From assembly GCA_013538805.1 (NCBI GenBank), contig JABXGR010000011.1, positions 7,020 to 39,019 of the forward strand: DNA of 32,000 nucleotides, in the 5' to 3' direction. This DNA is from Candidatus Nitrosocaldus schleperae. GTDB lineage: Archaea > Thermoproteota > Nitrososphaeria > Nitrososphaerales > Nitrosocaldaceae. The notes under the pieces are model-generated. The model did not search any database. It had not been told where the DNA came from and worked only from the letters and a program-made list of their open reading frames with translations. Below are positions 8,317 through 27,969 of this stretch, one piece after another. The translations under genes were made by a program, and so were the position numbers. How positions within the stretch are numbered: the stretch's first letter is position 1; each line of letters starts with the position of its first letter.

Positions 8317-9033
8317 TTACTTAGATGCTATGAATATTACAGCAGCACCAAGCATCCTAGATACCAACCTTACGCTACTAAACTTCTCTCTGAGCATTGC
8401 TATCATCTCTGAGTTCTTTGGTAACCTCTTGTATGTAGAGTATATCGCAGTGAACTTTAGCCCTAACCTGCCAGCAGCAAAGAATGCTAGGATGGCAAGT
8501 ATGAACCTAAGGTAGAGAGATGCTCCAAGCCTAGCAAATGGATCATCTGGCTTGCCTATATCAACTATGACTAGCCTACCATTATCCTTAAGCACCCTAT
8601 GGAACTCCCTTATCGCATCCTTCATGATCACTGCATCCCTGAATGAGTATCCACATACTATTGCATCGAATGTGTTGCTCTTGAATGGTATGTACTCGAA
8701 TACGCCAGATACAAGTGATATCCTGCTTCCGTACTTATTACCATCGTTCATCTTCTCACTTGCAAGATAGAGCATCTCTACTATTGGGTCAAGCATAACA
8801 ACCTTGACATTTGGGAAGATGCTAAGCATGCTCTTACTCATGTTACCAAAGCCAGAGCCAGCATCTAGCACTAGATAACCATCCTCAACGCCCTCAACTA
8901 TGCCTAGCCTCCTCATCTCCTCTGCCCTACCAAGAGAGATTACGTTATTTACCCTATCATATACAGGGATGATCTCCCTAAGCACATTTATTATACTATC
9001 CCATTCATCCCTTAACCCCAATCCTCTGCTCAC
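8317..9033 (-). CDS. ubiE: UbiE/MenG-family SAM-dependent (demethylmenaquinone-type) methyltransferase
   Basis: It has the YDRVNNVISLG N-terminal block and the SAM motif LDAGSGFGN, at a typical length. The GTG start at 9031-9033 directly abuts the pth2 stop. Confidence 0.75.
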   Translation of the reverse strand: MSRGLGLRDEWDSIINVLREIIPVYDRVNNVISLGRAEEMRRLGIVEGVEDGYLVLDAGSGFGNMSKSMLSIFPNVKVVMLDPIVEMLYLASEKMNDGNKYGSRISLVSGVFEYIPFKSNTFDAIVCGYSFRDAVIMKDAIREFHRVLKDNGRLVIVDIGKPDDPFARLGASLYLRFILAILAFFAAGRLGLKFTAIYSTYKRLPKNSEMIAMLREKFSSVRLVSRMLGAAVIFIASK

Positions 9034-19823: not shown

Positions 19824-20651
19824 TCAATCAAGGTTTAACTCCATACTCATGAACTCTATAATATTCTTCATCCTTAAGCAATCAAGCTCAAGCAGTGGGG
19901 ATTCACATATTATGGTTATATTTAGTCCCCTCCTAACTATCTCCAACGCTAAAGGTTCGAACTGTGGCTCCCCTATTGGTCTATGGATATCAACATACCT
20001 GTAACCCTTCCTTGCAAGCCCTGTAAAGTGTGCATTTATATGCTCTAGCCTAGCATTGAGCAGTCTATCTATAACATCTGCATAGTCTATCCTACCATCG
20101 TTCCTAGCAAATATATGTGCAAAGTCCACATAAGGTATAACCCAACCATTAAGATCCTTGTGGAGCCTCAACACCTCATCAAGAGTACCAAACTGATTCC
20201 TCCTTGCCATAGTCTCTGCACCAAGCTTAACATGCTTTATGCCCATGCTCCTCATCTCATCCACTATAGACTCATAACCTGCTCTAACCATAGTGTATGC
20301 CTCTTCCTTGCTCCTCTTCCCATAAAAGGCTGAGTGTATTGCTATTATATCAGCATGCATAGCCTCGCCTCTCTCTACACACTCTAGTATCCTACGCTTA
20401 GATCTCATTATCACATCCTCATCCTCCGAACATAGGTTTATGTAGTAAGGTGCATGTATGGATAGCCTTATACCCAACTCATCTGCTAGCCTTCCCAGAT
20501 CCTTACTCTCCTTTATGCTAAGGTAAATGCCATGAGCAAAGTCTACCTCAAGAGCATTGAGCCCAAGTTCGTAAATCCTCCTCATAGCAGCCTCTATACC
20601 ATGACCTCTTGCAGTGGCTGGGAAGCCTTGAGTCCCTATATATACTCTCAT
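19824..20651 (-). CDS. nfo: Endonuclease IV family AP endonuclease (TIM-barrel, Nfo-like)
   Basis: These blocks align with E. coli Nfo metal-ligand regions: SIHAPYYINL, IAIHSAFY, KLGAETMA, VDFAHIFA, DIHRPIGE, ITIICESP. I prefer the ATG at 20651 to the TTG at 20654. Confidence 0.75.
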   Translation of the reverse strand: MRVYIGTQGFPATARGHGIEAAMRRIYELGLNALEVDFAHGIYLSIKESKDLGRLADELGIRLSIHAPYYINLCSEDEDVIMRSKRRILECVERGEAMHADIIAIHSAFYGKRSKEEAYTMVRAGYESIVDEMRSMGIKHVKLGAETMARRNQFGTLDEVLRLHKDLNGWVIPYVDFAHIFARNDGRIDYADVIDRLLNARLEHINAHFTGLARKGYRYVDIHRPIGEPQFEPLALEIVRRGLNITIICESPLLELDCLRMKNIIEFMSMELNLD

Positions 20652-20730
20652 CAAGATAGGTTAGATCCCTAGCATATTATTAAATGCAGAGTATCCTATT
20701 GAACATGCTTAACAACTAAAATAAATCATC

Positions 20731-21105
20731 TTACCTCATCCCTCCTATCATCCCAGGAGCCTTGGGCATACTCCTGTACTCCTTCATTATATGTATGCTT
20801 GGTTCTGCAGTGATAACAACATACTCCTTGTTTGCATCATCTCTAGGTGAGAGGGATACCTTCTCTCCAGGCTTTATCCTTGGTATAAAGTCCTTATAAG
20901 TACCATAATCAACCACAATGTTTGTAACATCGTTCCTGCCAGTATTTGTGATGATAACCCTGTATATGTCCATCACATCTATCCTATCCTTGAATGCATC
21001 AACCTCAAGTGCATAATCCTGGTTAGAGTATGGCATCAGCATCAAGAATGCTGTTAGCATTGCAGTGCCCATGGCAGCAGCGCCTACTATTAGGTAGAGT
21101 AGCAT
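20731..21105 (-). CDS. N-terminally membrane-anchored small extracytoplasmic protein, beta-rich (possibly CARDB/Ig-like)
   Basis: An N-terminal hydrophobic anchor (LLYLIVGAAAMGTAMLTAFLMLM) is followed by ITNTGRNDVTNIVVDYG, which resembles the CARDB-type motif. The gene flanks the amo locus. Confidence 0.5.
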   Translation of the reverse strand: MLLYLIVGAAAMGTAMLTAFLMLMPYSNQDYALEVDAFKDRIDVMDIYRVIITNTGRNDVTNIVVDYGTYKDFIPRIKPGEKVSLSPRDDANKEYVVITAEPSIHIMKEYRSMPKAPGMIGGMR

Positions 21106-21215
21106 AACATTATAATCCCTTGGTTAGATTTAACATTTATCATTAACTAGAGCATGCTATCATCATATTATATTAGTACAACCATTATAGTTATATTTAA
21201 GTTAGTTTCATTATA

Positions 21216-21416
21216 ATGGTGATGAAGAACTACAGCATAATTGCAGTACTAGCCATACTGACTATGGCAGTAGTAGCAGTAATTATGCCAAGTGCATACG
21301 CCCAGACATGGGGTAGGCCTGACTCCATGATAATTGCAGGGTTACCACTGATAGTTGGTCTAGGTACTGGCATAGTGTACTTTATAATAATATCTGCAAG
21401 AAGATCTAGGAGGTAA
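21216..21416 (+). CDS. Very small signal-peptide plus single-TM protein, unknown function
   Basis: The 66-aa product has a signal-peptide-like N-terminus ending AYA-QT, then one TM helix and an RRSRR stop-transfer tail. A TATA-like TTATATTTA lies at 21191-21199. The start could instead be the ATG at 21222. Confidence 0.5.
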   Translation: MVMKNYSIIAVLAILTMAVVAVIMPSAYAQTWGRPDSMIIAGLPLIVGLGTGIVYFIIISARRSRR

Positions 21417-21560
21417 AGAACTGGGCTTATTTATTTATTATATTTCTTATTTTGCTATCCTTCCATTATGGGTAGATGATGAGTTATGTAACCTTTTGGT
21501 ATGCTAGTAGTATCGATCATTCACACATCCTGAATTAAATAAAGATAGCGAGTGATGGTG

Positions 21561-21577
21561 ATAAAATAACAAAAAGA
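21561..21577 (-). terminator. T-rich terminator-like tract downstream of amoA
   Basis: The minus strand reads ccatctttttgttattttat, starting about 20 nt after the amoA stop. Oligo-T is the usual archaeal termination signal. Confidence 0.4.
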
Positions 21578-21597
21578 TGGTGGGTATATTGTTATCT

Positions 21598-22251
21598 TTA
21601 ATCCCACTTGCTCCACGCAGCAGCCCATCTGTACGTCCAAGTGTTCAGCTTTGCTCCCAAGGCTGCCATTGGAACGCTTATAACAGCACTAATACCTGCT
21701 GCTAGGGCTACTGGGCTGTTGTAGAACTTGCCTACCTGAGGCTCGATTGGTGTTAGGTATGCTGGGAGTGTTGGTCTTGGGTACTTGAATGCCATCTCCA
21801 ATGGGTCATGTACAGTAAGCAAGTTTATCATGTTGAAGAGTGGCATCGACATGCCTAGTAGAGAGCCTCCTATGAGTATCGCTGCATGCTTGTTCCTCCT
21901 GGTTGCCCAGTATGCTAGATCCAATAGCATTGCACTTGGTATCCACACTGGGACTATCATGAAGTCGTATGGGTAGCCTAACCCTCCAATCCAAGCCCAT
22001 TTTGCAACCCAGGTGTAGATGGTCATTATTGTAGCGTAATAGGTTGCTGTACCAGGCACACCTGTGAATAGCAGGTAGTAGATGGCACCAACCACAAGCA
22101 TGGTTGACTGGCTAAGATTAAAGATCACAAAGGATGTCCACATCCAGTCAGAGTAGAAGATGTAGTCTCCAGCATTGATGGTCAGTAGCGTTGAGTTCAC
22201 TGCAACTACCACTATGAACAGGTAGTGTATTGTTCGTCTAATCCAGACCAT
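21598..22251 (-). CDS. amoA: Ammonia monooxygenase subunit A (archaeal type)
   Basis: The 217-aa product begins MVWIRRTIHYLFIVVVAVNSTLLTINAGDYIFYSDWMWTSF, nearly identical to the N-terminus of known thaumarchaeal AmoA. It has the expected length and 6 TM segments. Confidence 0.97.
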   Translation of the reverse strand: MVWIRRTIHYLFIVVVAVNSTLLTINAGDYIFYSDWMWTSFVIFNLSQSTMLVVGAIYYLLFTGVPGTATYYATIMTIYTWVAKWAWIGGLGYPYDFMIVPVWIPSAMLLDLAYWATRRNKHAAILIGGSLLGMSMPLFNMINLLTVHDPLEMAFKYPRPTLPAYLTPIEPQVGKFYNSPVALAAGISAVISVPMAALGAKLNTWTYRWAAAWSKWD

Positions 22252-22274
22252 TAGAATAATGTACTATACCCATA

Positions 22275-22282
22275 TATATAAA
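22275..22282 (-). promoter_or_regulatory. TATA-box-like element (minus-strand TTTATATA) for amoA
   Basis: About 24 nt separate the TATA 3' edge from the amoA ATG, consistent with a leaderless mRNA. Confidence 0.5.
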
Positions 22283-22347
22283 ACTTACTCTAGGTTAGTG
22301 CTAATAAATTATTAGAATAAAAATAAAATTAAGAAATATTTATAATT

Positions 22348-22608
22348 CTAGGGGATGGCTGGCTTCTCCATGGCAACTTTCCAGATGAAGATGAATCCAA
22401 AGACAATTATGACTGTCAACACGCTCAGTGCATACATCCCAGAACTGAATGGGTATGCCCATGCATAGTATGTGAACCCTACCCAGACACCAAATGCTGT
22501 TGCTGCCCACGCCATTATTGCTCCAATTATATATAAGCCCTTCATATGCTCTGTCCTCTTGCCTATCATCCTCTCTATCTCATCCTTGGGCGCCTCTTTC
22601 TTTGACAT
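22348..22608 (-). CDS. amoX: AmoX, the small two-TM protein conserved between amoA and amoC in ammonia-oxidising archaea
   Basis: The 86-aa product has two TM helices and sits between amoA and amoC, exactly as described for amoX. Confidence 0.8.
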   Translation of the reverse strand: MSKKEAPKDEIERMIGKRTEHMKGLYIIGAIMAWAATAFGVWVGFTYYAWAYPFSSGMYALSVLTVIIVFGFIFIWKVAMEKPAIP

Positions 22609-22630
22609 TAAGAATAATAAAACATATGCA

Positions 22631-22639
22631 TTATTAAAG
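22631..22639 (-). promoter_or_regulatory. TATA-box-like element (minus-strand CTTTAATAA) for amoX
   Basis: 22 nt separate this element from the amoX ATG at 22608. Confidence 0.45.
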
Positions 22640-22666
22640 TTTACTTTTGAACTACTGCTGGATAAT

Positions 22667-22698
22667 TAAAAAAAGAAAAGGGAGTTGCCCATTAGGGC
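22667..22698 (-). terminator. Hairpin plus U-tract terminator-like element downstream of amoC
   Basis: The stem is TGCCC (22685-22689) paired with GGGCA (22694-22698), with a 4-nt loop. On the minus strand it is followed by cttttctttttttaatt. Confidence 0.45.
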
Positions 22699-22748
22699 AG
22701 TTGCAATTTGTTTGCCTTGCCCACCTTGCTTGATATACCTTCTACTTC

Positions 22749-23312
22749 TTATGGTATGCTCCTGCTGTACAACTTGCCCTCTAGTGCAAGCTTGTACATC
22801 TCTGCAACGTATGGGTTGCTTGGTGGTGTCTCCATTCCTAGCTCTACCATCCTAACGTAGAGCCTTACCACATAGGCTAGAGCACCCATGAATGCTACAA
22901 CGACACCCATGTTGAATGACCAGTGGTTTGGAACTGCGAATACCTCCTCAACGAACCAGAAGTGCCACATCTCATTTATGCCTATGGTGAACATTGTACC
23001 TAAGTAGCCTATGATGGTCATCTTTATACCAGTGTTAACACTGTTGTTTGGACCCCTCATCAGTGGCACCCTTCTGTCATATATCATTATTGCACCCCAG
23101 CCTAGTGGTAGGGCTACGAAGTGGGAGTATAGCCACCAGTGTGCTGGTGTGAATGCACTATCCCTTATACTTGTCTGGTGAAGTGAGCCATCTACGAAGT
23201 TATCAACCTCAACACTTGCTGCAACTGAACCCATCACTATGACCATTATCAGTATCTTCTTCAGCCTCTGCATCTCAACCTCCTTTGGTAGTAGTGCTGG
23301 CATCTGAGCCAT
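22749..23312 (-). CDS. amoC: Ammonia monooxygenase subunit C (archaeal type)
   Basis: The 187-aa product carries TPAHWWLYSHFVALPLGWGA and EMWHFWFVEEVFAVPNHW blocks characteristic of thaumarchaeal AmoC. The genomic context supports the call. Confidence 0.95.
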   Translation of the reverse strand: MAQMPALLPKEVEMQRLKKILIMVIVMGSVAASVEVDNFVDGSLHQTSIRDSAFTPAHWWLYSHFVALPLGWGAIMIYDRRVPLMRGPNNSVNTGIKMTIIGYLGTMFTIGINEMWHFWFVEEVFAVPNHWSFNMGVVVAFMGALAYVVRLYVRMVELGMETPPSNPYVAEMYKLALEGKLYSRSIP

Positions 23313-23324
23313 ACCGCTTCAACT

Positions 23325-23341
23325 CTTGCTATCAGAGCAAG
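23325..23341. promoter_or_regulatory. Perfect 6-bp inverted repeat (CTTGCT-N5-AGCAAG) between the amoC TATA box and the ATG
   Basis: The repeat was read directly from the sequence. It occupies about -29 to -13 relative to the amoC ATG, immediately downstream of the TATA-like element. Confidence 0.4.
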
Positions 23342-23342
23342 G

Positions 23343-23350
23343 TATATTTA
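23343..23350 (-). promoter_or_regulatory. TATA-box-like element (minus-strand TAAATATA) for amoC
   Basis: It lies 30 nt upstream of the amoC ATG. This spacing is longer than for the other amo genes. Confidence 0.4.
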
Positions 23351-23593
23351 CCTTATGATAGAAATTATCAAATTAAATCTATATTAATTCTAAAAAAAGG
23401 TTATATAACATTAGATAAATATGTGAAAAGCCATATTTATATCGAATTATCTAAATGATCATATGATAAATAGATATGATTAACAATAGAATTCAATATA
23501 AGTAGATGTCCTTAAAGAAGTATTTCATTTATTGTTTATAAGTATACTCACATATCGCTTTACATATAAATCAAAAATGGGTTGGCAATGTAA

Positions 23594-23603
23594 AAATATA
23601 TAT
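23594..23603 (+). promoter_or_regulatory. TATA-box-like element (AAATATATAT) for amoB
   Basis: 24 nt separate this element from the amoB ATG at 23628. Confidence 0.45.
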
Positions 23604-23627
23604 CTATGTTAGTACAAGATTCTAATA

Positions 23628-24257
23628 ATGAAGGTAATGCATGTAGCATTGCTGACTGCAGTGGCGGTAGTACTGGTCCTTGGCTCATTTGCGCCCATGA
23701 TGAAGGATGCATTTGCACATGGTGTCCAGGCACAGTTACAGAGCAGGTTCGTAAAGATAGAGGATGAGACATTCTCAACATTCAGGGTCATTACAAAGCA
23801 AGAGTATGCAAACAGGACAGGGTTGACACTTGAGCAGATAGATGCTATGGGCTGTGACCCAAGAAGACAGGATATACTGATAGTTACTGGAAGGCTTGTA
23901 AGCCAGGTTAACAAGGATCTAAGGGCATGGATCTCCCTCTTCAACGAGTCAACCAATGCAGGCAACAGGTGGGAGTTCATATCAAGGGAGCCACCAGGTA
24001 ATGTATTCGATATACCTCCAGGTGGAGAGGTTCCATATAAGCTGTGTGTATCAGCACTTGAGCCTGGAACATACCATACGCATACACAGTTGAATGTAGC
24101 TAGTGTTGGTCCAGGTCTTGGTCCAGGTGCAACAATAGTAGTAGAGGGAGAGCCAACGATGAAGCCAATGTCAGTAGGTAATGTGATATATCAGACCATA
24201 CTGATTGCAATAGGTTTAGCAATATCATTTGCAACAAGACCATGGCAGGTTATATAA
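23628..24257 (+). CDS. amoB: Ammonia monooxygenase subunit B (archaeal short form)
   Basis: A signal peptide ends AFA, followed by HGVQAQLQSRF, the hallmark mature N-terminus of archaeal AmoB. His31 plus the His150-x-His152 motif (YHTHTQ) correspond to the CuB ligands of PmoB. A C-terminal TM anchor is present. Confidence 0.93.
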   Translation: MKVMHVALLTAVAVVLVLGSFAPMMKDAFAHGVQAQLQSRFVKIEDETFSTFRVITKQEYANRTGLTLEQIDAMGCDPRRQDILIVTGRLVSQVNKDLRAWISLFNESTNAGNRWEFISREPPGNVFDIPPGGEVPYKLCVSALEPGTYHTHTQLNVASVGPGLGPGATIVVEGEPTMKPMSVGNVIYQTILIAIGLAISFATRPWQVI

Positions 24258-24280
24258 CAGCATAATATACCATCAACATC

Positions 24281-24304
24281 CTTTCTTTTGTTTTGATTTA
24301 TTTA
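24281..24304 (+). terminator. T-rich terminator-like tract downstream of amoB
   Basis: ctttcttttgttttgatttattta begins 24 nt after the amoB stop. Confidence 0.45.
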
Positions 24305-24806
24305 CAAACATGCCCATACATACATACAGAAGATTATCATATTCTGCACAGTCTTGATTAATAAAAGGTGTATCATCTATCTAGTTATCTGTAAATACAA
24401 CATTGATGTAGTACATACATTAACAGGAATCGCTCTTTCCTCTACATATAAGATGTAAACAAGATATAGCAAGAATGTTAAGGTTATGGATAGCAGGCTA
24501 CTAACCGTACTCTTCAATAGTACAGAATGGTGGTCATGCTTGTACTTCTTGCATGAGTTGATGGTTTATTTTTACTTAAGTGGCTAGTCCCACAAAGCAT
24601 ATAATGCTAGCATCTAGCATAGAACATAGATATTAGTAGAGGTGTCATCTTTCACTTTATGAGGCTGAGTTACAGCATTTAGTGCTAACATCGTATACCA
24701 TATATTTTATCAGACAGGACCATCGTAAAGCTAGAATCTATTGGATATATGCTATAATAACAATAAATTTATAATATAAAAAAGGAGAATTTGGCTGTTA
24801 TTATTA

Positions 24807-25076
24807 TTACCTTCTCCTCTCCTCTGGCAATAAGCCTATACCTTCCCTCTCGTAGTACCTCTCCAGCTCCTGTACCCAAGTCTCCCTTGCAGTGCCTCCT
24901 ATACCCTTGTGTCTTATCCAGTATGCTATAACGCTCAGCAGGAATATGCCAAACATCATAGTGCCGAATATGTAGATCATCACATCGTAGAAGAGTGGGT
25001 CATATGCTGGGCCTATCTGCAGCACTATGCTCTTTATACCCATAGCCAGCGTTGCAATATCCATTAGTATAATCAT
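24807..25076 (-). CDS. Small two-TM membrane protein with a charged C-terminal tail; candidate accessory AMO subunit (AmoY/AmoZ class)
   Basis: The 89-aa product has two hydrophobic helices and then RETWVQELERYYEREG...EERRR. It is positioned next to amoB. The minus strand carries TTTTTTATAA at 25111-25120. Confidence 0.55.
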   Translation of the reverse strand: MIILMDIATLAMGIKSIVLQIGPAYDPLFYDVMIYIFGTMMFGIFLLSVIAYWIRHKGIGGTARETWVQELERYYEREGIGLLPEERRR

Positions 25077-25270
25077 CTAAGAGCATGAATATATACATTT
25101 CCGTTTTGCCTTATAAAAAATTTAGTTGACCTCAGATCTGCTAGTATCATTACTAGATATAACCACTATATCCATATAATAAAGTCACATAAGCATGAAT
25201 TATGATCCAATTATAATATATAGATGATGGGATAGAACATCAATAATAAAAAGTAGAATTGTATGTACAG

Positions 25271-25639
25271 TTATGTGCTCTTCTGTATCTTTGGCTTCCT
25301 TAGTGCCATTGCAAAGAATGCTGCAGATATGCCTCCAAATATGGCACCAAGAGCAGCAACATATATGCCTAGTTCACCGAATGTCCTTGCTACCATTGAT
25401 GTACCAGAGCCATATGCTCCCTCTTGCTGTGCTGTTGTGAGCCTCTTCTTTGCTAGTATGGAGTGCTGTGTACATGCAAACTCTGGTATGCCAAGTTGCT
25501 TGCACTCCTCCAACTGCTCAGGAGTAGCAGTTATATCACCACCAGCAGTGCCATACAGCTGTGCCATTGCTACTGAACTTCCTCCTATCCATGTTGCAAT
25601 TACTCCAGCCACAACTGCTAGAAGTGCAAACTTATTCAT
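25271..25639 (-). CDS. Signal-peptide protein with a small two-Cys ectodomain and a C-terminal TM anchor; candidate accessory AMO subunit (AmoY/AmoZ class)
   Basis: MNKFALLAVVAGVIATWIGGSSVAMA-Q is a classic signal peptide. It is followed by an ectodomain of about 60 aa (EECKQLGIPEFACTQH), a Gly/Ala-rich TM helix and a basic tail. I prefer the ATG at 25639 to the TTG at 25657 because of the TATA spacing. Confidence 0.6.
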   Translation of the reverse strand: MNKFALLAVVAGVIATWIGGSSVAMAQLYGTAGGDITATPEQLEECKQLGIPEFACTQHSILAKKRLTTAQQEGAYGSGTSMVARTFGELGIYVAALGAIFGGISAAFFAMALRKPKIQKST

Positions 25640-25662
25640 GTAAGTCTTAATGTACAAATGAT

Positions 25663-25670
25663 GTATATAA
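25663..25670 (-). promoter_or_regulatory. TATA-box-like element (minus-strand TTATATAC) for the 122-aa signal-peptide protein gene
   Basis: 23 nt separate this element from the ATG at 25639, the same spacing seen for amoA, amoX and amoB. Confidence 0.45.
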
Positions 25671-25737
25671 TCTTTCTCCCCTTCTTTTTAAATTATACAG
25701 GGCAAAGACTTTAATCTATCGACTAGAGAGTCTATGT

Positions 25738-26184
25738 ATGGCTAGGATACATGCACATAGGAAGGGCAAGTCACACTCAATAAGACCAGTACAGGTTAAT
25801 GCCCCATGGATAAGCAACATGAGCAAGGAAGAGATAACCAACCTTATAGTAAGCATGGCTAAGGATGGGCTTAAACCAAGCGAGATAGGGCTTAGGTTGA
25901 GGGATGAGTATGGTATCCCTCTTGTAAAGAAGGTTATAGGCAAGTCTATAACAGAGGTGCTAGAGGAGCATGGTATCAAGGCTTTGCCAGAGGATCTTAG
26001 CAATATGCTTGAGAAGGCCATAAGGCTTCAGAAGCATCTTAACGTGCATAGGAGTGATAGCAACAATATACGCTCTCTAGAGCTAATAGAGGCTAAGATA
26101 CATAGGCTTGCAAAGTACTACAAGAGGGAGGGAAAGATACCCCAAGACTGGAAGTACAAGGCTGTAATAGCAAGCCTTGAATGA
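25738..26184 (+). CDS. rps15: 30S ribosomal protein S15 (uS15, S13e type)
   Basis: It begins MARIHAHRKGKSHSIRP and is 148 aa long, typical of archaeal S15P/S13e. Confidence 0.95.
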   Translation: MARIHAHRKGKSHSIRPVQVNAPWISNMSKEEITNLIVSMAKDGLKPSEIGLRLRDEYGIPLVKKVIGKSITEVLEEHGIKALPEDLSNMLEKAIRLQKHLNVHRSDSNNIRSLELIEAKIHRLAKYYKREGKIPQDWKYKAVIASLE

Positions 26185-26205
26185 TAGGTAAGTAAGTAAG
26201 TAGTG

Positions 26206-27672
26206 ATGATAGACTTTATTAGTAATACTGGTGATGATATCAACATGGATTCATCCCTACAGAAACTATCTAGTAGAATACTCGATGCTATATCAGCAAG
26301 GAAAAGGATCATGGTTATAACACACTCTGATGCTGATGGTCTTGTATCTGGTAGCATAATAGCCAAGGCTATAATAAGGAAGGGTGGGCGATGCCTTGTT
26401 AGGGTTGTGAGCGATCTCAACCCTAATGTGTTGAGGAAGGTTGCTGGAGAGGATCATGACCTATACATAATAACTGATATGGGTGCTGGTCTGGCAGGTG
26501 TTATAGATGAGCATATAGGCAAAGGTAAGGGTAAGGATTGGATGGTTATAGATCACCACCAACTCCCAGAGGAGGAGATGGGTGATGATAGAATCTTTAA
26601 TGCATGGAAGTTCGGTATAGATGGAGGGATGGAGGCATGTGCTGGCACACTTGCATACAAGGTTGCCCATGCTTTAGATGAGTCCAACAAGGATCTCTCA
26701 GCACTTGCAGTAGTTGCCATGGTTGCTGATAGACAGGATCAGGGCGAGAGGAAGTCTCTACTTGGACTAAATGCAGATGTTGCAGATACTGCAAGAGAAC
26801 TTGGGTTGCTAAGCATAGATCTTGATCTCATGCTAGTTGGTAGGGAGACAAGAGCGGTTCATGAAGCACTTGCATATACATCCTATCCATACATAGATGG
26901 GCTAACATGGAACGTTGATTCATGCTACTCTCTACTCAACTCAACAGGACTAAGACTTAAGGATGATGGAAGATGGCGTACACTAGCAGAGATGAGTAGT
27001 GAGGAGAAGAGCAAGATAGTTGAGACCATAGCCATGTTCGCTTCATCCTCATCTGCTCCTAGCAGCAAGGATGCAAACACTATAGTTGATGAGTTGATAG
27101 GTTATGTATACACACTACTTAGGGAGGATAAGAGGAGCATGCTTAGGGATGCAAGGGAGTTCAGCATCATGCTAAATGCCTGTGCTAGGATAAGGAGATC
27201 TGGTGTTGGGATAGCAATATGCATGGGTGATAGGAACTCTATGCTTATGGAGGGTGAGATGATAGTCAATGAGTATAGAAGAACCTTAAGAGGCTATATA
27301 AGCACAATAATGGGTGAGCGATGGAGGGTTGTTGATGATGGTATGCTAGCCATGGTTAATGGGGATAACCTTATAGCACAGGATATGCTTGGGGCAGTCT
27401 CATCACTGCTTAGTGGGTCTCAAGCATTCCAAGGGAGGGTTATAGTTGTAAGGACTAGGACTGATGATGGTATGTACAAGTTCTCCTGCAGGAAGGGTCT
27501 TAACTGTAGTATTGATGTTAACCTTGGTCTACTGATGCGTGAATGCTCCAGCAGGTGCAATGGTGTTGGGGGAGGTCATAGTGCTGCTGCTGGTGCAAGG
27601 ATAAGTGCAGATATGCTAGATGAGTTCATGCGATGTGTTAAGGAGGGTGTGTACAGTAAAAGCAGTGCATAA
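26206..27672 (+). CDS. DHH/DHHA1 phosphoesterase, archaeal RecJ/Cdc45-like nuclease family
   Basis: DHH motifs are present: HSDADG, ITDMG, VIDHHQ, MVADRQD, plus the DHHA1 motif GVGGGHSAAAGA. It follows rps15, a common archaeal arrangement. I prefer the ATG at 26206 to the GTG at 26203. Confidence 0.8.
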   Translation: MIDFISNTGDDINMDSSLQKLSSRILDAISARKRIMVITHSDADGLVSGSIIAKAIIRKGGRCLVRVVSDLNPNVLRKVAGEDHDLYIITDMGAGLAGVIDEHIGKGKGKDWMVIDHHQLPEEEMGDDRIFNAWKFGIDGGMEACAGTLAYKVAHALDESNKDLSALAVVAMVADRQDQGERKSLLGLNADVADTARELGLLSIDLDLMLVGRETRAVHEALAYTSYPYIDGLTWNVDSCYSLLNSTGLRLKDDGRWRTLAEMSSEEKSKIVETIAMFASSSSAPSSKDANTIVDELIGYVYTLLREDKRSMLRDAREFSIMLNACARIRRSGVGIAICMGDRNSMLMEGEMIVNEYRRTLRGYISTIMGERWRVVDDGMLAMVNGDNLIAQDMLGAVSSLLSGSQAFQGRVIVVRTRTDDGMYKFSCRKGLNCSIDVNLGLLMRECSSRCNGVGGGHSAAAGARISADMLDEFMRCVKEGVYSKSSA

Positions 27673-27675
27673 GGG

Positions 27676-27969
27676 ATGCAAGAGGTTAATGTTAGGGTTA
27701 GGGTTAGAGTTAGAGTTAGAGTTACCATAAGGATGGATGAGCATGGTAAGGCTGCTACCTCTATGCTTGAGTCACTGCTACCAGATAACGTTGGTATCCC
27801 AGAGGGGCTATACATAGACTTCCATACTGATGGAAGTATGCTAGTGCTGATCTTTGAGGCCATACTAGAAGGGGATAAAAGGATGTCATCGCTCATATCA
27901 ACTATAGATGAGGTGTTGGAGCACATCAACACAATGGTTAGGGTCATGAATATTGTTGATGTTGGATGA
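27676..27969 (+). CDS. Pcc1-like KEOPS subunit candidate with an N-terminal (Val-Arg)n repeat
   Basis: The core pattern AATSMLESLLPDN...LVLIFEA...LISTIDEVLEHINTMVRVM resembles the Pcc1/CTAG fold signature, and the protein is small. This identification is tentative. Confidence 0.5.
   Translation: MQEVNVRVRVRVRVRVTIRMDEHGKAATSMLESLLPDNVGIPEGLYIDFHTDGSMLVLIFEAILEGDKRMSSLISTIDEVLEHINTMVRVMNIVDVG
27685..27726 (+). repeat. Seven tandem hexanucleotide units (GTTAAT GTTAGG GTTAGG GTTAGA GTTAGA GTTAGA GTTACC), in frame
   Basis: The units were read directly from the sequence. They encode VNVRVRVRVRVRVT at the N-terminus of the Pcc1-like ORF. Confidence 0.9.

Follow-up and report, generated by a model that had tools for sequence, protein, structure and literature searches.

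The window, i.e., the whole stretch of 32,000 nt that was analysed, carries amo genes in the order amoA-amoX-amoC-amoB-amoY-amoZ, followed by rps15. The features of this region are given below with their coordinates in the window:

21598 to 22251, minus strand: amoA, 217 aa, matching Pfam Archaeal_AmoA with E = 4.8e-107
22348 to 22608, minus strand: amoX, 86 aa, two TM helices according to hydropathy, situated between amoA and amoC
22749 to 23312, minus strand: amoC, 187 aa as in NCAV_0490, matching Pfam AmoC with E = 4.4e-14
23628 to 24257, plus strand: amoB, 209 aa as in NCAV_0489, matching Pfam Monooxygenase_B with E = 1.6e-07, convergent with amoY
24778 to 24783, minus strand: T6 run read from the sequence, 24 nt past the amoY stop codon, possibly the archaeal oligo-T terminator of amoY
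24807 to 25064, minus strand: amoY in the preferred 85-aa form, starting MDIATLAMG, 84/85 identity to NCAV_0488
25065 to 25076, minus strand: MIIL codons of the 89-aa reading, four extra codons that are probably untranslated
25090 to 25097, minus strand: amoY TATA element TGTATATA, inside GAAATGTATATATTCATG, an octamer found in 65/68 AOA loci
25248 to 25252, minus strand: T5 run read from the sequence, past the amoZ stop codon, perhaps a terminator separating amoZ from amoY
25271 to 25639, minus strand: amoZ, 122 aa with signal peptide, ectodomain and C-terminal TM helix, 122/129 identity to NCAV_0486
25663 to 25670, minus strand: amoZ TATA element TTATATAC, which begins 31 nt upstream of the start codon at 25639
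25738 to 26184, plus strand: rps15, the ribosomal protein S15 gene, a conserved neighbour divergent from amoZ

The amoX gene shares 52-98% identity with the corresponding gene in 33 loci (tblastn). The two minus-strand ORFs beyond amoB to which the original prediction drew attention, 24807-25076 (89 aa) and 25271-25639 (122 aa), are both present as claimed. They occupy the same strand with amoZ upstream, and 194 bp separate the end of amoZ from amoY. Between the converging amoB and amoY genes lies an AT-rich spacer of 549 bp (24258-24806) with no convincing ORF and no Rfam match; the Rfam scan of positions 20000-27000 returned nothing meaningful. Among the Nitrosocaldus relatives the length of this spacer differs by about 300-380 bp, and the midpoints of amoB and amoY are 631-1012 bp apart in loci L001-L004 compared to 993 bp in the window.

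In BLASTP comparisons, the 89-aa ORF was identical at 84 of 85 positions (99%) to P0182 (SPC33681.1 / UniRef100_A0A2K5APV6), and the longer reading of the 122-aa ORF at 122 of 129 positions (95%) to P0187 (SPC33679.1 / UniRef100_A0A2K5APZ8), both proteins of Candidatus Nitrosocaldus cavascurensis according to a cluster look-up. Hodgskiss et al. (2023, PMC10030591) define AmoY as NVIE_004540 / NCAV_0488 / Nmar_1506 and AmoZ as NVIE_004550 / NCAV_0486 / Nmar_1507, and their Dataset S1 equates NCAV_0488 with A0A2K5APV6 (85 aa, 9.9186 kDa) and NCAV_0486 with A0A2K5APZ8 (130 aa). Due to this near-identity to accessions named NCAV_0488 and NCAV_0486, the 89-aa gene is assigned as amoY and the 122-aa gene as amoZ. 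ORFs and locus tags were linked via the UniProt accessions of Dataset S1 and the cluster look-up, followed by BLASTP, since the best 80 of 565 matches in the genome scan for AmoY relatives were MAGs only and included no record of N. viennensis, N. maritimus or N. cavascurensis. An independent pointer to the 89-aa gene as amoY is given by the Nitrosopumilus-type AmoY homologue P0126, whose only histidines occupy positions 55 and 73 and thus coincide with the His55 and His73 listed for NmAmoF in a 2026 bioRxiv cryo-EM preprint. We are therefore highly confident that two of the three small AOA-specific AMO subunits are encoded here, in a Nitrosocaldus-type genome: AmoY with 85 aa (89 aa if read from the first ATG) and AmoZ with 122 aa. 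The original prediction had named both genes as candidates for these subunits and proposed a BLASTP comparison with named AmoY and AmoZ proteins, which, with the N. cavascurensis proteins as reference, was positive in both cases. Its reservation that either gene might be a further unnamed partner applies to neither, since each matches a named subunit.

On the basis of its mass (an 85-aa subsequence of 9.9186 kDa), P0053 was also considered as NCAV_0488, but it is a protein of archaeon HR04; P0053 and P0182 are equal in mass because their sequences differ only by I versus L. Scans of both proteins against Pfam and NCBIfam, neither of which holds a model for AmoY or AmoZ, returned sub-threshold noise only (FixQ, CXCL16, Trp_oprn_chp, hexose kinase). 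PDB sequence searches with both yielded chance matches only (ATP synthase subunit a, SLCO2A1), and archaeal AmoA had no match in the PDB sequence search. The AmoY and AmoZ entries met were deposited as 'hypothetical protein' or under similar automatic labels. One of these labels, the UniRef name 'PDGLE domain-containing protein' for AmoZ, was rejected, as the Pfam scan showed no PDGLE match at E <= 1. Since AmoY and AmoZ belong to the enzyme with which the most abundant ammonia oxidisers begin nitrification, their correct labelling matters for genome annotation. Both proteins, the linkage of their genes to amoABCX in Nitrosocaldus and the role they play are known from earlier publications; small refinements from the window are the likely start codons, the conserved amoY promoter box and the Cys hairpin missing in marine AmoZ.

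The order A-X-C-B-Y-Z of the window is that of N. islandicus, for which the corresponding entries of Table S16 give consecutive locus tags and mark the genome as 'fully syntenic' (Hodgskiss et al. 2023, PMC10030591). In other Nitrosocaldus genomes amoY is likewise situated directly downstream of amoZ and beside amoB. The position of amoZ between amoY and rps15 is also that of the known AmoZ: in N. viennensis, rps15p (NVIE_004560) adjoins amoZ (NVIE_004550) (Hodgskiss et al. 2023 Dataset S1, PMC10030591). At the protein level, relatives of the 89-aa ORF were identified in 565 species-representative genome stretches, and the regions around the best 80 of these 565 matches, all of them Nitrososphaeria-type records, were compared with the window. 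In 73 of these 80 loci the strand of AmoY also carries an AmoZ relative, 375-1347 bp upstream, so that the synteny across AOA which the original prediction had suggested examining is borne out for the amoZ-amoY pair. S15 was observed in 71 of the 80, mostly directly beside amoZ (tblastn). The protein collection contained 52 and 116 clusters of relatives in the searches with the two ORFs, and protein identities range from 50 to 100% across AOA orders. According to Table S15 of Hodgskiss et al. (2023, PMC10030591), both families are conserved throughout the AOA and confined to them.

In case of AmoY, translation most likely starts at the second ATG (25064), giving 85 aa. The TGTATATA box is located 31 nt before this ATG and 19 nt before the first ATG (25076), in L005-L007 a TTG takes the place of the first ATG, and codon 4 is either L or P. 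Thus, the spacing of the box fits the second ATG, the first ATG is not kept in L005-L007 and the four extra codons are variable, all of which argues for the shorter form. Most members of the 90% cluster of AmoY are annotated with 85 aa as well, like NCAV_0488. The choice of the start codon affects the predicted topology. For the 89-aa form, the Kyte-Doolittle mean over 19 residues is 2.0 for residues 1-19 versus 1.18 for residues 5-23, the N-terminal 19 residues of the 85-aa form. Without MIIL the N-terminal segment hence falls below the usual TM threshold, leaving a single TM helix at about residues 32-54 of the 89-aa form (about 28-50 of the 85-aa form), and a single TM segment is also reported for NVIE_004540 (Hodgskiss et al. 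2023, PMC10030591). The AF2 monomer, of low to moderate confidence, contains helices 2-21, 27-57 and 59-78, with a pLDDT of about 90 over the TM helix and 69.6 overall. A two-TM topology was rejected in view of the hydropathy of the 85-aa form and the conserved promoter spacing. From the earlier description as an 89-aa two-TM protein with a charged tail, the tail is retained (35 aa with 8 K/R and 7 D/E), while the second TM segment is not, as only one helix is clear. In 19 homologues the motif QIGPxYDPLFYDV shows no variation. Size class, single TM helix, QIGPxYDPLFYDV motif and charged C-terminal tail are shared by NCAV_0488 and the window protein, which differ in one residue, S16 (89-aa reading) versus N, and show no difference of kind.

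The architecture that had been proposed for the 122-aa protein, i.e., a signal peptide, an ectodomain of roughly 60 aa with C-x9-C-x2-H and a C-terminal TM segment, was recovered in full. A signal-peptide-like N-terminus (residues 1-26, ending AMA|Q) precedes about 63 aa of ectodomain, containing C46-x9-C56-x2-H59, and a C-terminal hydrophobic helix at roughly residues 86-113, followed by RKPKIQKST. The AF2 monomer is of low confidence (pLDDT 55.8) and shows helices 3-18, 40-48, 58-71 and 86-113, of which 40-48 and 58-71 flank the C46/C56 pair. Besides the two cysteines, ILAKKR and GSG do not vary in the 24 homologues aligned. Signal peptide, two-helix Cys-pair ectodomain (predicted disulfide) and C-terminal TM helix are shared with NCAV_0486. 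The window protein is two residues shorter in the Gly-rich linker that follows its signal peptide, and the annotation of NCAV_0486 has 6 extra N-terminal residues, which in the window overlap the TATA box. An alternative TTG start at 25657 would give an AmoZ of 128 aa. As the TATA box falls inside this TTG reading and is conserved in other lineages, occurring as AAAG(A/G)TTATATAC at -31 to -33 in L001, L002, L005, L008 and L014, we prefer the 122-aa form over forms of 128 or 130 aa.

For amoA, amoX, amoB and amoZ, the distance from the first base of a TATA-like hexamer to the start codon is 29-31 nt, and amoY shows the same spacing when read from its second ATG. Such a spacing applies to 2% of all ATGs in the window and to 8% of positions in the local AT-rich spacers. 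That the 122-aa gene shares its TATA-to-ATG distance with amoA, amoX and amoB, as originally suggested, is correct, but the quoted value of 23 nt becomes 23-25 nt depending on the end of the box chosen. Of 68 AOA loci, 65 carry the octamer TGTATATA no more than 140 nt upstream of the QIGP codons, compared to a background of 0.07 per kb per strand, and in all 65 loci with the octamer an in-frame ATG follows 31-35 nt after the start of TATATA. An extended amoY element, GAAATGTATATAT(T/C) (window 25088-25100, minus strand), is almost invariant across AOA orders; it was found in Nitrosocaldus, Nitrosomirales and Nitrososphaeraceae, and in a variant form in a marine genome. The conservation of this box is specific to amoY. 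No motif common to all six amo genes was reported by Hodgskiss et al. (2023, PMC10030591). From the spacing, amoY and amoZ would each be transcribed from their own promoter as a leaderless mRNA.

For the position of both proteins in the AMO complex, published data are available from close and distant relatives. BN-PAGE migration of N. cavascurensis AmoY and AmoZ is strongly correlated with AmoABC, in N. viennensis cross-links join AmoY and AmoZ to AmoABCX, co-regulation is reported, and for amoZ co-expression with amoA, amoB and amoC is reported in N. viennensis (Hodgskiss et al. 2023, PMC10030591). Together with AlphaFold-Multimer models, in which the AmoZ ectodomain is situated against the AmoB cupredoxin domain, BN-PAGE, cross-links and co-regulation assign AmoX, AmoY and AmoZ to the AMO protomer (Hodgskiss et al. 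2023, PMC10030591). The N. cavascurensis entries of Dataset S1 list summed intensities of 8.8e9 for AmoY and 8.7e9 for AmoZ versus 7.3e9 for AmoB, and 4 AmoY peptides (28.2% coverage) and 3 AmoZ peptides (28.5% coverage) were detected (PMC10030591).

In the 2026 bioRxiv cryo-EM preprint, AmoY and AmoZ of N. maritimus are termed AmoF and AmoG, respectively, and form a clamp-like heterodimer between adjacent AMO protomers. Each crosses the membrane once, and the N-termini bridge the periplasmic sides. The charged C-termini bridge the cytoplasmic sides with AmoH, a subunit of unassigned gene, and electrostatic contacts are made through the charged AmoF/AmoG termini. Archaeal AmoB is missing one helix of its bacterial counterpart; the AmoZ helix makes up for this loss and occupies the vacant place, and the inter-protomer contacts of the bacterial C-terminal cupredoxin domain are taken over by the AmoY/AmoZ pair according to the literature. 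In contrast to these parts of bacterial AmoB, AmoY and AmoZ are separate polypeptides without a cupredoxin fold, and with no Pfam Monooxygenase_B match, sequence homology to AmoB was not detected; the analogy is a functional one only. By analogy to the marine AMO we infer a scaffold (clamp) role for AmoY and AmoZ of the window. AmoZ would be exported via its signal peptide and cleaved after AMA, and a C46-C56 disulfide would join the two short helices of its ectodomain, which would lean on the AmoB cupredoxin domain, while AmoY would be inserted with its N-terminus outside and the K/R-rich tail inside.

Since both ORFs are short and lack Pfam, NCBIfam and PDB sequence matches, they could be taken for chance open frames in AT-rich spacer DNA. 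With relatives in 565 genome stretches, identities of 50-100% across AOA orders and long invariant motifs, this explanation can be dismissed for either ORF: it is refuted by the conservation and by the detection of peptides in N. cavascurensis. Another objection accepts the genes as real and regards them as conserved neighbours whose products are not stoichiometric subunits but act on AMO transiently, e.g., in its assembly, copper delivery or membrane insertion. The lower expression of amoZ than of amoY in N. maritimus and the 2-3 amoZ copies in some AOA (Hodgskiss et al. 2023, PMC10030591) would agree with such factors. However, in N. cavascurensis, the closest relative of the window, both proteins co-migrate strongly with AmoABC at an AmoB-like abundance, cross-links tie them to AmoABCX, and in the 2026 cryo-EM preprint AmoF and AmoG are built into every protomer. 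A merely transient association is thus very improbable, and subunits of the complex remain the preferred reading.

The cysteines of AmoZ raise a similar question, namely whether C-x9-C-x2-H represents a metal (copper) or redox-active thiol site for catalysis or for electron or copper transfer instead of a structural disulfide. In favour of a site of this kind, C46 and C56 are invariant in 24/24 aligned AmoZ homologues, none of which is marine-type; a His is situated two residues past the second Cys in the window protein, and the domain faces the compartment of the AmoB copper site. But H59 is present in only 13 of the 24 homologues and replaced by T, Q or V in the others, and the marine AmoZ lacks the whole Cys segment while the marine AMO is still active. 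Moreover, the AlphaFold-Multimer models of Hodgskiss et al. (2023, PMC10030591) put both AmoZ cysteines in a disulfide. A metal or redox function is hardly to be expected under these circumstances, and a structural C46-C56 disulfide is predicted from the models.

The marine-type AmoZ (L081:7511-7837, beside the marine AmoY) is clearly homologous (hhalign probability 98.3%, E = 2e-14). The marine protein, which is the form present in the only archaeal AMO solved to date, differs from the window AmoZ by the lack of a 13-residue segment holding both cysteines, with about 34% identity between the two. Due to this low identity and the missing Cys segment, any periplasmic contacts made by the ectodomain of Nitrosocaldus AmoZ are to be regarded as a prediction. 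A Cys hairpin is also absent from P0048-P0052, AmoZ relatives among JGI metagenome proteins, which carry a C-terminal extension past the TM helix with a zinc-ribbon-like CxxC…CxxC motif (FCTNCGAPAGNQKFCGNCG). As this extension follows the TM helix, it would be cytoplasmic.

Two further small ORFs are located near amoA. The 66-aa ORF orf66 (21216-21416, plus strand) diverges from amoA; its product has an N-terminus resembling a signal peptide (…PSAYA|QT), another TM helix and a tail with RRSRR, and no family match. It occurs beside amoA with 81-83% identity in Nitrosocaldus and with 48-78% in L005-L008, L014 and L017, the match in L017 being partial (tblastn). It may encode a small membrane partner confined to certain lineages, or be unrelated. 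The 124-aa ORF orf124 (20731-21105, minus strand) encodes a TM helix at the N-terminus plus a soluble domain of about 95 aa and has no Pfam or NCBIfam match. Relatives beside the amo cluster were observed in Nitrosocaldus (88-97% identity), Nitrosomirales (51%) and L008 (55%), and in several Nitrososphaeraceae loci within a few kb of amoY (28-39%). Neither orf124 nor the N. cavascurensis neighbours NCAV_0487 and NCAV_0493-0495 are among the entries covered of the N. cavascurensis BN-PAGE table. A parallel for such small genes beside amoA is given by marine AmoE, a lineage-specific AMO partner. It is tempting to speculate, although we consider it rather unlikely, that the Cys-tied AmoZ ectodomain gives the AMO of thermophilic and soil AOA a different periplasmic architecture and that, separately, orf66 and orf124 encode further lineage-specific AMO partners. 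If true, the architecture around the AmoB cupredoxin domain would differ, with consequences for ammonia capture or stability.

In the marine locus L081 a single gene of 170 aa (8484-8996, minus strand), whose product combines a TM or signal segment at the N-terminus with a soluble domain, is situated between amoB and amoY; no counterpart was found between amoB and amoY in the window. By position, it is probably one of the marine-specific genes of the cryo-EM preprint (Nmar_1504 or the AmoE gene). A GT/AC dinucleotide-type repeat is located at 27676-27760 (plus strand) and 27616-27700 (minus strand) of the window and encodes an (RV)n run in a 97-aa ORF (27676-27969) and a (TL)n run in an ORF on the opposite strand. 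Relatives of the 97-aa ORF occur in 60 of the 80 loci around the best 80 of the 565 AmoY matches.
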